Positions 41,633 to 45,771 of a stretch of DNA of 52,783 bases are shown here, piece by piece; position 1 is the first letter of the stretch; each line of letters starts with the position of its first letter. The notes below the pieces were generated by a model. It worked only from the letters and a program-made list of their open reading frames with translations, was not told the DNA's origin and did no database searches. Origin of the DNA: Acinetobacter phage vB_AbaSI_1; sequence record PP359530.1; one strand, written 5' to 3'. The position numbers were made by a program, and so were the translations under genes.

Positions 41633-41804
41633 AAGTGGGAAGAGCCTAGAATTTTTCAAAATGAGTTCAACTCCTATAGTCGGACTTGAACAAAAAAGAA
41701 ACTGTTGTTAATCATACTTAATCAAAATTAAATGTTATACATGAGTTATACCAGCATGTTATATGCCGAAAAAGCAATTATAAAATCAATTATTTAGGAT
41801 TTTT

Positions 41805-41828
41805 GTTCAACTCCCGCCATCTCCACCA
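41805..41828 (+). other. tRNA 3'-end-like sequence (GTTCAACTCCCGCCATCTCCACCA): candidate attP/attL core for the downstream P4-type integrase. A second degenerate copy (GTTCAACTCCTATAG) lies at 41664-41678.
   Basis: T-arm, acceptor and CCA-like ending without an upstream tRNA body, 176 nt upstream of the integrase gene. Confidence 0.45.
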
Positions 41829-41874
41829 AATACTAAGATCAAAGTTAATCACATATGATTAGAGTTGATCAAAA

Positions 41875-41912
41875 AGCCTTAAATCTTAATGATTTAGGGC
41901 TTTTTTAATGCC
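41875..41912 (+). terminator. rho-independent terminator
   Basis: agccttaaatcttaatgatttagggct followed by a T6 run. Confidence 0.45.
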
Positions 41913-41972
41913 TTTGATTTAATCATTCTTGATTCAGCTTAATCATTGATAATCAAACTTTATCACTATAAG

Positions 41973-42002
41973 CTGTTATACAACTGTTATACGGTATAAC
42001 AC
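41973..42002. repeat. CTGTTATAC direct repeat (x2) plus an inverted copy (GTATAACAC) abutting the integrase start: candidate arm-type or regulator sites
   Basis: Repeats at 41973-41981 and 41984-41992, inverted copy at 41994-42002. Related GTTATAC copies occur at 41748-41766 and at 6287-6304 upstream of the small terminase gene. Confidence 0.4.
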
Positions 42003-42003
42003 T

Positions 42004-43161
42004 ATGCTATCGGATGCCCAAGTAAAGTCATTAAAACCTAAAGAATCTAGATATTCAGTAGCAGATGGGGAAGGATTAAACATTTCCGTTTTTCCTAATG
42101 GAAAAAAGAAATGGGTTTTGTCTTATCGCCAAAATGGAAAGCAAAATCAAAAGATGTTGGGTGAATATCCTATTATGGGATGTAAAGAAGCACGCCAACT
42201 AGCAAGACAATTAAAATTAGAATATCAGGGCAAGGTCGCCAATTCTCCACCAGTCCATAAGGTGGTTGAGGAATGGTTGAGTATCATGAAATCACAATGG
42301 ACCAGCAAAAAATACTATGACACAGTCGAATATCGACTTGCATATCTAACCGAGGATTTTAAAAATCTTCCAATTAATGAAGTTGAAAGAAAGCACATCT
42401 CGAAGAAAATTAAAGAAATTGTTGCAAAGGGTACTTTAGAAACAGCAAGCCGAGCATTAAGACTTGGAAAGCAAGTATTTGATTTTGCAATTGCCTCAGA
42501 TTATACAGATCGTAATCCATGTACATTAGTAGAGGATGTAATACCTGAATATGAATCTGACAGCCATCCTTGTTTACCTGTGAGTGAAATGCCAGAATTC
42601 TTTAAACGCATGAAAGCGAGTCATTCTAGCTCAATAGTAAAAATGGCCATGCTTTTAGTTTGTTATACCGGAACCCGAATAACAGAATTGTTAAAAGCTA
42701 GGTGGGATACTGGAGAGATAGATTTTGAAAACAAAGTCTGGATAATTCCTGCAGAGCGAATGAAAAAAAGAAAAGAATTAATGGTCCCACTGGTACCGCA
42801 AATCTATGCTTTGTTTAAGGAACTCGAAAGCGTCAAAACAGATGATGGGTACATATTTAAAAAACGTGGAAAACCTTATGAGCACATGACATCTGAGTCG
42901 GTTCTCACAATGATAAAAAGAATGGGCTACACAGATAAAATGGTTACTCATGGTTTTCGTTCATTGTTTTCGACTCATGCTAATGAAAGTAAATTGTTCC
43001 GTGGTGAGGTTATCGATTATCAAATTGCCCACGTGAACAAAACAACAAAAGCAGATAAGACAAGTAAAATTTATAACCGTGCCGAATATTGGGATGAGCG
43101 AGTAGAGCTTATGACTTGGTATGCGAATGAAGTAGAAAATTGGATTGGTACTAACTCATGA
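42004..43161 (+). CDS. int: tyrosine integrase, P4-type with an N-terminal DUF4102 arm-binding domain
   Basis: 385 aa. N-terminal LSDAQVKSLKPKESRYSVADGEGLNISVFPNGKKKWVLSYR. Catalytic R (GTRITE), H..R (HGFRSLFST) and Y (KIYNRAEY). Confidence 0.85.
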   Translation: MLSDAQVKSLKPKESRYSVADGEGLNISVFPNGKKKWVLSYRQNGKQNQKMLGEYPIMGCKEARQLARQLKLEYQGKVANSPPVHKVVEEWLSIMKSQWTSKKYYDTVEYRLAYLTEDFKNLPINEVERKHISKKIKEIVAKGTLETASRALRLGKQVFDFAIASDYTDRNPCTLVEDVIPEYESDSHPCLPVSEMPEFFKRMKASHSSSIVKMAMLLVCYTGTRITELLKARWDTGEIDFENKVWIIPAERMKKRKELMVPLVPQIYALFKELESVKTDDGYIFKKRGKPYEHMTSESVLTMIKRMGYTDKMVTHGFRSLFSTHANESKLFRGEVIDYQIAHVNKTTKADKTSKIYNRAEYWDERVELMTWYANEVENWIGTNS

Positions 43162-44041
43162 ACCAAAGTTTATTTGTCGGTTTTTGGAATATAAATTTAT
43201 CTCCTCCTATAGGAAATAGATGGAATAAATCAAAAGTTGATAAAAAAATAAAAGTTTCTAGGGTAATTCAAGGGCTCTTGAAACTCGATTTTGATTTTTT
43301 ATGTCTTTGTGAGGTTTCACCTGAGGATATGGAGTTTATAGATAATAGTATTCAACTTATTGGGATGGGCTATGATTACAATATTTATCGAAAAAATTAT
43401 GGAGGCTTATATTTTGATACATGTGTAATATTTAAAAATACTTTTGATTTTGTTCAATCAAAAGTAGAAGTCGATGGTGAAGAAAAGAATAAGCTTAAAG
43501 TCTTTCAAAAATATGAATTTCTAAGTGGGCACTTAGAAGAAAGAATTATATTTTATGTTACTCATTGGTTATCTCAATTAAATGATAATAAGGAAAAAAG
43601 AAGAACAGTCGCATCATTTATTAAAAAAGATACTAATGATGAAAAAAAATTTTCAATAAAACGAAGTTTGTTGTTTTAGGGGATTTTAATGTTGAACCTT
43701 ATGATTCGGCAATATTAGAGGGGTTAAGAAGTACTAGGGATCAAAAAGTTATCTCTAATAATTCTTCACTGTTTTACAATCCTTTTTGGAAATTTTTACA
43801 AATTAAGGAAGATCAACCCTCAGGTACCCATCACTGTACTAAAAATGAGTTCCATCACTGGCACGTTTATGATCAAATCTTAGTTTCAGGAAACTTTTTC
43901 CGTGATGGATGGAATTTGGATGATAATCTAGTTCTTGTCTTTGATGATAAGATGATTAGTTCTTTACATAATGATTCATTTAGTAACCCTTCAGATCATT
44001 TGCCTATCTGTCTAAAGTTGGAGAAAACAAAATGCATTTAG
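43158..44041 (+). pseudogene. endonuclease/exonuclease/phosphatase (EEP) family nuclease split into two frames at an A8 tract (43642-43649): frameshifted pseudogene, slippage-dependent gene, or sequencing error
   Basis: Frame 0 (43158-43679) encodes GFWNINLSPP...DFLCLCEV. The -1 frame from 43643 to 44041 encodes VVLGDFNVEPYD ... SDHLPI. Joining the two at the A AAA AAA run restores a canonical EEP protein. Confidence 0.6.
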
Positions 44042-44487
44042 ATTTAAGTTTAGCAGTTGAAGAGGGTATGCAATCCTCTGTAACCAGAGACAAAAGTATT
44101 GAAGAAATTGATAATGTATTATTTGAAGTAGACCAAGCAGTTAAGAAAGCAACAAATAATAAAGTTGAATTTGGTTGGAGAAAAAAAGGGTTTAATACGT
44201 TAGGTTTATTAACGGGTCTTACTTCACTTCCAATTACAGATGTAAAAATTGAATCTCAAGAGCCTGAGTCGCGTGTTCTCTATGTTTCTGCAACAGATGA
44301 CAAAACACAAAGATTTGATATAACAATATTAGTGATAAGTCCTGATGGCTTCCCATGTGAAATGAATGTTAACGGCAACAAGCTTATATCACATGATGCT
44401 GAATCCTTATTAGAGCAATTTAAACCCTTACTTTCTAGTGCTTTTGTTGGAGATAAAATAAGAAAATTAATGAAAAAAGGCGCTTAA
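44032..44487 (+). CDS. hypothetical protein (151 aa)
   Basis: Low-GC ORF between the EEP and FRG genes; its start overlaps the EEP stop. Confidence 0.45.
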   Translation: MHLDLSLAVEEGMQSSVTRDKSIEEIDNVLFEVDQAVKKATNNKVEFGWRKKGFNTLGLLTGLTSLPITDVKIESQEPESRVLYVSATDDKTQRFDITILVISPDGFPCEMNVNGNKLISHDAESLLEQFKPLLSSAFVGDKIRKLMKKGA

Positions 44488-44601
44488 TTAGCGCCTTAAA
44501 TTTTGAATCTAATCATAGCAAGTAATTATGAAAGCAATTTTTTGTAGGTTTTAAATTGAACGAATTTCTAATGTATAAAATTGATAAATGGGTAAATCAA
44601 A

Positions 44602-45594
44602 ATGGGTAATAAATACTACGATCAATTAGTAAATAATGATTCTCATTTTGAAATTACGTTTAATGATTTTGAGGAGTTTATAACTTTTATTCGTCCAGAT
44701 AAATTACATGTAAAAGATCTTATGACTCAATTAAGATTGGAATTTAACCCATCAGCTGTTAATTTTCCTTTTTTTAAGATAAAAGATTTTAAAGGGTATA
44801 GTACATTAGACAAGTCGATCATTTATCGGGGACATGGAGAAAGTGATTGGGATTTAAAACCAACCTTTTATCGTAATAAAAAAAATATTGGGTGGGTTAA
44901 GACAAATTGGAGTGTAGATCAAAATTATGAGTCAGAAATTTTATTGAAATTCCAAGATTCCTGTGATTTAGCTGGTGTTCAATTACCATCAGATAATGAT
45001 CAATTGAGAAGAAGACAAAAAAATAAGTTAAGTAAATATAGGAAATCGTTTGGAAGAGATCAGCTAGATTGGTTTGATGATGATTTTTTTGAGTTAGCTG
45101 TATATGCACAACATTATGGAGTTGAAACTAGATTGCTGGATTGGACCAAAAATCCGTTTGTAGCTAGTTATTTCGCTTGTTCTCATGCACTCAAAATGAA
45201 TTATGATCCAAATTCAAAATTTTGCATTTGGGTATTAAATTCTGAAAGTATTACAAATGAATTGAATCAAGTACTCGAAGTGCTAGATCCACCTAAAGGC
45301 CTTAATCAGCATATTTCTCATCAACAAGGTGTCTTAACTTACACAAAAAATCACATCAAAATCTTTAATAAATTTGGAACTCGACCATGCTTAAAAGATA
45401 TTCTAAAGTATTATGAAAGTGGTTACAGGTTATTAAAAATAACTTTAGGATATGAATTAATCGTTGAATTATTTAATTATTGTAATATTCATAATTTCAA
45501 TGCATGTCACTTATTTCGTGGTGCCAACGGTGCTGCAATGCACACCACTGATTTATTAAATTTTGATGACTATAAATATCCTATAGAAGATTAA
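44602..45594 (+). CDS. FRG-domain protein
   Basis: IYRGHGESDWDLKPTFYR and QHYGVETRLLDWTKNPFVASYFA match the FRG domain motifs (FRGq..W.L.P...R; QHyG.pTrLLDWT...A.yFA). Confidence 0.7.
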   Translation: MGNKYYDQLVNNDSHFEITFNDFEEFITFIRPDKLHVKDLMTQLRLEFNPSAVNFPFFKIKDFKGYSTLDKSIIYRGHGESDWDLKPTFYRNKKNIGWVKTNWSVDQNYESEILLKFQDSCDLAGVQLPSDNDQLRRRQKNKLSKYRKSFGRDQLDWFDDDFFELAVYAQHYGVETRLLDWTKNPFVASYFACSHALKMNYDPNSKFCIWVLNSESITNELNQVLEVLDPPKGLNQHISHQQGVLTYTKNHIKIFNKFGTRPCLKDILKYYESGYRLLKITLGYELIVELFNYCNIHNFNACHLFRGANGAAMHTTDLLNFDDYKYPIED

Positions 45595-45613
45595 AGGCGC
45601 TTATTTAGCGCCT
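45594..45613. terminator. hairpin ggcgcttatttagcgcc between the convergent FRG and alpA-like genes. A near-copy (ggcgcttaattagcgcc) follows the 151-aa ORF at 44478-44494.
   Basis: Inverted repeat; the T-tract is weak. Confidence 0.4.
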
Positions 45614-45771
45614 TGAATCTCAACTTTAATCTTTGCTACTGATTGAGATGTCCAACCCTTATAAGTTTTGGATTCTCGATCAGGCGGGAATTTCTCCAAA
45701 TAATATTTTTTAAAAGTATTTGGAGCCATTCCGAGTTCTTTAGCTAATTGTCTTAAAGAATACCAAGACAT
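45601..45771 (-). CDS. AlpA-family HTH protein (excisionase / transcriptional regulator), 56 aa
   Basis: MSWYSLRQLAKELGMAPNTFKKYYLEKFPPDRESKTYKGWTSQSV resembles the AlpA pattern (FP.P...g.r...W). Lies between the integrase region and the leftward early genes. Confidence 0.5.
   Translation of the reverse strand: MSWYSLRQLAKELGMAPNTFKKYYLEKFPPDRESKTYKGWTSQSVAKIKVEIQGAK

Follow-up and report, generated by a model that had tools for sequence, protein, structure and literature searches.

A conserved pair of genes for an EEP-superfamily enzyme and a 151-residue partner in the integrase-proximal slot of an Acinetobacter phage

We analysed the genome of Acinetobacter phage vB_AbaSI_1 (PP359530.1), whose full 52,783 nucleotides we call the window, and in it the AT-rich cargo that lies directly after the gene of a P4-type tyrosine integrase (int). 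A preliminary description of this DNA had offered three adjacent cargo genes, coding for an EEP-superfamily nuclease, a 151-residue protein (the partner) and an FRG-domain protein, as a candidate undescribed module. We find that the candidate survives in reduced form: the EEP gene and the partner gene appear to constitute a translationally coupled, conserved two-gene operon, which occurs across several phyla and mostly on sipho- and myoviral prophages, an inovirus and plasmid-like elements. It is the pairing that matters here, not the frameshift that splits the EEP gene of the window, and the pair rides very different mobile elements where defence genes sit. The explanation that we consider probable as a whole is that of a phage integrating at ssrA, with a swappable slot that holds the EEP-partner operon and a separate FRG gene, a rare indel in the EEP gene, and an effector-plus-neutraliser role for the pair.

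The EEP enzyme and its partner

The frame-corrected EEP protein matches Pfam families PF19580 (3.5e-13, 49.7 bits; cut-off 27) and PF03372 (3.1e-8, 34.1 bits; cut-off 24.5). Twelve Acinetobacter homologues all keep residues N11, E52, D176, N178, D239, D280 and H281 unchanged, and across phyla the Asn, Glu, Asp-x-Asn, Asp-Gln and His are retained, with Glu at the position of D280 in locus L015 (loci compared with the window carry L numbers). The AlphaFold2 model (predicted local distance difference test score, pLDDT, 73; predicted template modelling score 0.80) is a four-layer alpha/beta sandwich, for which Foldseek returns 3mpr (an uncharacterised Bacteroides EEP), Tdp2, nocturnin and CNOT6L about equally well, at E-values of 1e-11 to 1e-13. 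Profile, catalytic residues and modelled fold all agree with membership of the EEP superfamily, to which we assign the protein. It has the fold and the full catalytic constellation in common with these four structures and with ExoIII, as far as the model allows the comparison, but is only 13-19% identical to any solved structure, and a sequence search of the PDB gave nothing significant. Unlike other EEPs, it carries the family motifs WNxxLSPP, HWxS and LYNPxW and comes with an obligate partner gene.

Records filed as Acinetobacter phage MD-2021a annotate this gene as exodeoxyribonuclease III (xth). The NCBIfam ExoIII equivalog TIGR00633 scores 32.7 bits against a cut-off of 99.05, and the annotation is therefore not justified; ExoIII matches below threshold are all that NCBIfam returns for the enzyme.

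The partner belongs to a family with 291 representatives among 1.84 billion proteins (profile search), nearly all of them stand-alone proteins of 130-190 residues with a G[YF]PC motif as hallmark. Pfam, NCBIfam and PADLOC are unmatched by the partner, Pfam finds no domain in ten family members scanned, and sequence searches of the PDB with the partner and with the FRG protein returned nothing significant. In the AlphaFold2 model of the partner (pLDDT 85.6), an antiparallel sheet is accompanied by one long helix at the N-terminus and two helices at the C-terminus. Isoelectric points are unremarkable (partner median 5.3) and give no sign of a DNA mimic. Ratios of nonsynonymous to synonymous substitution rates are 0.10-0.24 for the EEP and 0.29-0.43 for the partner, suggesting that both genes are under purifying selection and that the partner evolves faster.

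EEP and partner occur together, enzyme first, in 12 of 12 contexts examined; this count took in loci with enough sequence, and two Collinsella loci (L016, L017) stand outside it. The two genes overlap by 4 or 10 nt or, in L015, L030 and L047, are separated by 2-10 nt, and the 212-residue downstream neighbour in L015 was negative against the partner profile by hhalign. In the window the stop codon of int overlaps the EEP start (ATGA) and the EEP stop overlaps the partner start by 10 nt; the Acinetobacter ssrA prophages invariably have int, EEP and partner side by side. Beyond these, an EEP gene of the same clade lies directly upstream of a partner homologue in a Rhizobium metagenome-assembled genome (hhalign 93.9%), in metagenomic contigs L030 and L034, and in a RepC/AlpA/integrase (rve) element (L031/L032), and the pair forms a moron within the tail module of a myovirus-like prophage. 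The 9.7-kb filamentous Vibrio phage 10N.286.54.E5_PE001 (L047, PQ189352) has an EEP and a partner homologue at 1774-3082 (hhalign 97.5%). There the EEP, annotated 'DNase_I-like', and the 132-residue partner homologue are accessory cargo beside an IS629-type transposase.

Degenerate copies were also seen: L029 has a partner beside an internally deleted EEP, and L033 a C-terminal EEP fragment. In L007 (6326-8333) the pair follows ssrA at a distance of about 0.3 kb that contains no integrase gene; this resembles a remnant island without int, located at the attachment site of the window phage. In L031 (4062-7885) a CapP-like M78 peptidase (1e-27) and a 115-residue open reading frame (ORF) precede the pair, and a VbhA-like ORF and then a convergent PD-T7-1 homologue (1e-70) follow it; this stretch, and that of L032, is a small defence island. 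A search of genome contigs with the EEP profile gave four distant loci only, none of them from Acinetobacter. The module that the pair forms appears to be conserved and undescribed, though familiar in kind, and is tied to a distinct EEP clade.

A shortened partner homologue, AB2_37, was found in Acinetobacter phage IME-AB2 of the genus Obolenskvirus (L046, JX976549; 18290-18637, minus strand, 115 residues). First traced by Foldseek against viral models (E 2.5e-4) and then by profile methods, AB2_37 matches the partner in hmmsearch (53.5 bits) and hhalign (97.6%, E 4e-12), and also matches phrog_10179. By tblastn, 58 records of Acinetobacter phages, Obolenskvirus-type myophages of 43.5-46.5 kb, contain homologues of it. 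A tblastn search of phage records with the partner itself recovered the same prophage only; the Obolenskvirus homologue needs profile or structure methods. No EEP gene was found in IME-AB2 or in any of the 58 AB2_37-type records, and the phage records in which one was found are the window prophage, the Vibrio inovirus and two fecal contigs only. Obolenskvirus phages are virulent and are commonly considered for phage therapy.

Proposed function of the pair

The genes around the pair point to defence: the CapP-like peptidase and PD-T7-1 in L031 and, in Acinetobacter, the FRG gene that stands beside the pair or replaces it. We tentatively propose a specific model, to which we give somewhat less than an even chance. 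The EEP would be a toxic nucleic-acid or nucleotide phosphoesterase effector, and the partner would restrain or gate it in the manner of an antitoxin or immunity protein. The lysogen would express the pair along with int and be protected by it from superinfecting phages, through abortive infection or direct attack on incoming nucleic acid, and Obolenskvirus-type myophages would neutralise the effector with their shortened orphan mimic of the partner. The FRG protein would work separately, as an NAD-consuming or ADP-ribosylating effector. That the pair is an undescribed toxin-antitoxin-like anti-phage module in which the G[YF]PC protein restrains the EEP, and that Obolenskvirus captured a shortened partner as counter-defence, seems to us rather doubtful in this full form. 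If true, a new defence family would come with a natural antagonist among phage proteins, and the arms race between the two would be testable; defence and anti-defence would also form a ready-made pair in a priority pathogen, with Obolenskvirus among the phages used against it in therapy. The prophage cargo is found on at least 1000 A. baumannii contigs, and an interaction with Obolenskvirus could influence host range.

Several observations weigh against this proposal. PADLOC returned zero matches for EEP and partner, distant members included, and neither PADLOC, NCBIfam nor PDB sequences assign the pair a role. The nearest structures of the EEP span Tdp2, nocturnin and CNOT6L, and its substrate is therefore not readable from the fold. 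The partner model has weak structural neighbours only, among which neither a DNA-binding nor a known antitoxin fold was recognised. The enzyme-first gene order is unusual for toxin-antitoxin pairs. AB2_37 is without about 40 partner residues (approximately 43-82) and without the conserved Cys, and may have an unrelated role. In L014 the pair lies between housekeeping-type genes and no mobile-element signature was seen. Frameshift alleles are similarly rare in all three cargo genes, so that a preferential loss of the EEP, as for a toxin, is not seen; a higher rate of loss of the EEP than of the partner was accordingly rejected as a sign of toxicity. Finally, L009, which shares the frameshifted tract of the window, is an error-prone assembly. 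A literature search on EEP-based defence systems found nothing relevant, and we know of no toxin-antitoxin or defence family with an EEP-fold effector.

The effector model has as its main rival a function that serves the mobile element itself, in anti-defence or DNA processing. The enzyme might destroy nucleotide- or ADP-ribose-derived signals of host immunity, with the partner as a sponge or regulator, might process or repair DNA ends in the manner of Tdp2 or ExoIII, or might be a weapon against competing elements. We consider such a role unlikely, and yet it accounts for several findings: the nearest folds include Tdp2, which removes protein-DNA adducts, and nocturnin, an NADP(H) phosphatase; viruses, among them the inovirus, themselves carry the pair; and the partner homologue kept by virulent phages could mean that the partner benefits phages. 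On the other hand, the place of the pair is taken in L042 by another FRG gene, similar to the PADLOC candidate family PDC-S15, and the L031 pair sits between a CapP-like regulator and PD-T7-1. Lytic phages have the partner only and never the enzyme, and an enzyme that benefits phages generally is thus hard to reconcile with the distribution.

Tract lengths, the swappable slot and the FRG gene

As the preliminary description had stated, the EEP-fold gene is split at a run of exactly eight A, which is followed by four T (A8T4), and the ORF layout bears out that its halves lie in frames 0 and -1, the C-terminal half being read in the latter. Because a TGA sits just before it, the -1 frame is open only from 43643, and the junction between the frames must therefore be at the A-tract, which stands at the start of a frame overlap limited to 43643-43676. 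The window matches contigs from two assemblies labelled 'Acinetobacter phage MD-2021a' (L001, L002 and L018; CAKLQH020000049, CAKLQF020000027 and CAKLQF020000028). Over 52.8 kb they differ from the window by zero mismatches and in two places only, a TCA indel and A9 in place of A8; the window has five other runs of at least eight bases, four of them A8 and one T9, and none of these differs. In the A9 copies (L001, L002) the EEP gene is a single ORF of 294 residues. The extra TCA (5621-5623) is in frame, within a short TCA/GATCA repeat where ORFs 5177-5647 and 5613-6257 overlap. The ORF with this insertion was looked up as a test of shared lineage between the window and L009, and no record was found.

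Five tract-length alleles were seen at the EEP gene. Two are intact: A9T4 (DEKKIF; L001, L002 and L020), whose exact protein is on 72 contigs, and A8T5 (DEKKFF; seven IMG/VR loci), whose exact protein is on at least 1000. A8T4 (window and L009) and A9T5 (L010-L013) are frameshifted. A7T5 in L026 is out of frame at the tract and net in frame through two further deletions; the same length is inferred for an A. pittii record from truncated protein sequences. The truncated 173-residue product was found on a single contig of a 15-billion-protein collection, that of L009, a 4.06-Mb chromosome in which two further homopolymer deletions break neighbouring ORFs. All 12 divergent EEP homologues (57-80% identity) are single ORFs, and the A-tract is not conserved in distant alleles, L003 for instance having A4T7.

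A8T4 in the window thus appears to be a rare one-base deletion from an A9T4 (or A8T5) run at a homopolymer hotspot, whose cause is either an assembly error or a recent mutation with loss of function. As written, the gene codes for an enzyme cut short behind that half of its active site which holds Asn and Glu. The comparison of tract lengths in homologues, which the preliminary description had proposed, favours the simple indel among the readings it had listed for the frame switch, and speaks against programmed -1 or transcriptional slippage.

Homopolymer-length polymorphism is common to the cargo genes. The FRG gene has an A8 run of its own at 44878-44885, and four of 17 near-identical loci (L011, L012, L020 and L026) have a frameshifting A9 there; a truncated 171-residue FRG product is on 11 contigs. 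The runs in the three genes (EEP A8-9T4-5, partner A7, FRG A8) could conceivably be contingency loci that switch costly defence genes on and off in lysogens. The independent length variants A8T4, A9T5 and A7T5 arose at one EEP tract in both allele backgrounds, the FRG run varies as described, a partner truncation fitting the A7-to-A6 change of L009 is on 36 contigs, and some variants are insertions or come from short-read-type drafts and Logan assemblies. We nevertheless think phase switching improbable: only about 1-3% of records have an off allele, assemblies that contain further homopolymer errors (L003, L009, L011, L026) account for many of these, and AT-rich cargo has long A runs through composition alone. 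At the EEP tract, too, off alleles are rare and often stem from error-prone assemblies, clearly so for some of the out-of-frame lengths.

The slot after int exchanges cassettes among near-identical prophages. Between the window and L005, sliding nucleotide identity is 90-97% over int, falls to 50-70% over EEP and partner, and returns to 98-99% from FRG to the following helix-turn-helix (HTH) gene. In L042 (2793-3887) a divergent second FRG paralogue (364 residues, 29% identity) occupies the slot of the EEP pair, and in L044 (1151-1819) an unrelated 222-residue ORF. Both replacement ORFs overlap the int stop, the downstream FRG gene is kept, and the int-FRG-HTH arms are otherwise 95-98% identical; the second FRG paralogue of L042 is PDC-S15-like. 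The ssrA prophage slot is in this respect a natural laboratory, with two different FRG genes among its cassettes. The proposal that the gap next to int is an accessory hotspot is thereby borne out, with different cassettes found in prophages that are otherwise 90-99% identical.

The FRG protein matches Pfam PF08867 (6.8e-21, 75.4 bits; cut-off 25), so that the EEP, FRG and P4-type integrase calls of the preliminary description were all recovered by Pfam on the frame-corrected proteins. The view in that description that the three genes are recognisable as no named defence system holds for the EEP-partner pair, for which PADLOC has no match, but not for the FRG protein, which matches 14 PADLOC PDC-S15 models (best PDLC04937, 6.1e-34, residues 67-319). 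We take FRG to be a new member of this known candidate family on the strength of these profile matches: its gene stands alone on a mobile element, in line with the single-gene label of PDC-S15, and nothing sets it apart from the family. Frg has been placed in the ADP-ribosyltransferase superfamily as a predicted NADase-type antiviral effector (Iyer, Burroughs, Anantharaman and Aravind, PMC9503650), and PDC-S15 was still called uncharacterised in 2025 (PMC12482510). Literature searches for experiments on FRG found nothing relevant.

It is very improbable that EEP, partner and FRG form one three-gene defence system. In the common A. baumannii ssrA prophage the three genes stand next to each other in one orientation, and at least 1000 contigs carry each of the exact proteins. 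Against a single system, the pair occurs without FRG in at least nine settings (L003, L004, L007/L008, L014, L019, L030, L031/L032, L034 and L047) and FRG without the pair in L042 and L044; the window, L005/L006 and the IMG/VR loci contain FRG, A. soli (L004) and Acinetobacter sp. (L003) lack it, and in L007/L008 a 267-residue protein and an ORF11CD3-domain protein take its place. Recombination breakpoints fall between the pair and FRG, and the same boundary in the window holds a hairpin and a 114-nt spacer. The hairpin, which is found in identical form 3' of the partner ORF of L003, is terminator-like and would separate an int-EEP-partner unit from FRG with its own upstream region. By PADLOC's naming convention, PDC-S15 also carries a label that presumably marks single-gene candidates. 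The 'trio' is thus most likely a juxtaposition of two independent modules in one slot, with FRG as a separable single gene.

The window is a lambdoid temperate phage of A. baumannii with ssrA as its integration site, in the form of its excised and circularly permuted genome. This follows from the 25-nt core of attP, a site within the interval 41640-42003; the core equals the 3' end of ssrA in a three-way alignment of the window with attL (the ssrA-int junction, L002) and attR (L018, the opposite prophage end). BLAST matches break at 41805 and 41829, the annotation of L002 names the tmRNA, and its gene order is ssrA(tmRNA)-int-EEP-partner-FRG. The MD-2021a records contain chromosomal ssrA, ggt, emrB and ndpA and resemble bacterial draft contigs labelled as phage. 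In A. baumannii, ssrA has been described as an integration 'archipelago' that includes islands 'with endonucleases or exonucleases' (preprint 10.1101/2023.09.20.558655). An Rfam scan of 41000-46200 gave no model at gathering score.

The cargo lies directly after the integrase, as described, and is AT-rich (GC 0.30 over 43001-45000 against about 0.39 for the whole window); the 151-residue ORF and then the 330-residue FRG protein follow the EEP gene in the order given before (Table 1). The integrase itself has Arm-DNA-bind_3 (DUF4102), central and catalytic domains and targets the 3' end of the tmRNA gene, as a P4-type enzyme does. Downstream of the cargo, the gene called AlpA-like is where it had been placed, but its AlpA identity does not hold: Phage_AlpA (PF05930) is not matched in Pfam at E up to 0.1, and weak matches of this HTH protein are to phrog_66 excisionase (0.036), phrog_597 DNA-binding (2e-5) and PADLOC mad1 (2.9e-4). 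The right prophage end beside attP (37613-41632) is a block of DNA-damage-tolerance cargo. Inside the phage, a low-GC stretch close to the lysis/tail-fibre region has the gene of a second tyrosine recombinase (35625-36542, minus strand, 305 residues), which shares about 33% identity with the P4-type integrase; a related record annotates the gene as int_2.

Table 1. Positions of the features discussed, numbered from the first letter of the window
Feature	Position	Strand	Size	Remarks
umuC	38244-39542			DNA-damage-tolerance block
umuD	39539-40036			DNA-damage-tolerance block
SRAP-family peptidase	40183-40818			DNA-damage-tolerance block
ORF, phrog_32056	40949-41632		227 aa	DNA-damage-tolerance block
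attP core	41805-41829		25 nt	GTTCAACTCCCGCCATCTCCACCAA; same letters as the ssrA (tmRNA) 3' end
P4-type tyrosine integrase	42004-43161	+	385 aa	Pfam Arm-DNA-bind_3, Phage_int_M, Phage_integrase; phrog_1 4e-55
EEP gene, N-terminal frame	43158-43679	+	173 aa	GFWNINL, DFLCLCEV
A8 run (A8T4)	43642-43649	+		inside the EEP gene
EEP gene, C-terminal part	43649-44041	+		IFNKTKFVVLGDFNVEPYD...SDHLPICLKLEKTKCI, then stop; -1 frame; GDFN, DQ and SDH motifs
Partner ORF	44032-44487	+	151 aa
Hairpin	44477-44497			AAGGCGCT-AATTA-AGCGCCTT; GC-rich palindrome, terminator-like, at the end of the partner ORF
FRG-domain protein	44602-45594	+	330 aa	both motifs quoted in the preliminary description present
HTH protein	45601-45771	-	56 aa	excisionase position, convergent with the cargo

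Comparison with known systems

Long A runs are known slippage sites, and as at the dnaX (A AAA AAG) and insertion-sequence transposase sites, an A AAA AAA heptamer stands in the correct zero-frame register at the junction (GA A AAA AAA TTT), where exactly the DEKKIFNK of the intact allele would result if the ribosome slipped by -1 or the mRNA gained one A. That this is a programmed recoding site, by -1 frameshifting or transcriptional slippage and for regulated low-level expression of a toxic enzyme, is scarcely credible, since unlike at those sites relatives do not share the need for a shift: every divergent homologue reads in frame, as do near-identical copies, at least 1000 contigs carry the intact product and one the split product, the tract itself is not conserved in more distant alleles, and further out-of-frame lengths (A9T5, A7T5) occur as random indels would give them. 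Because a -1 slip on the heptamer restores the wild-type sequence, a trace of full-length protein is conceivable, and from general knowledge slippage by polymerase or ribosome could yield, at most, such a trace.

The effector-and-partner reading of the pair draws on its likeness to toxin-antitoxin and abortive-infection pairs. Like these, the pair comprises two apparently coupled genes on mobile elements, with the pairing conserved across hosts and elements, and the partner, unlike the enzyme, is the faster-evolving member. Phage mimics of antitoxins are known, such as T4 Dmd against RnlA/LsoA and phage pseudo-ToxI against ToxIN, and here too lytic-type phages that infect the same host species carry orphan homologues of the partner. 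The pair differs from classical toxin-antitoxin pairs in that the enzyme gene comes first, the partner is without a known antitoxin fold, the putative effector has an EEP fold, and toxicity and neutralisation are predicted only.

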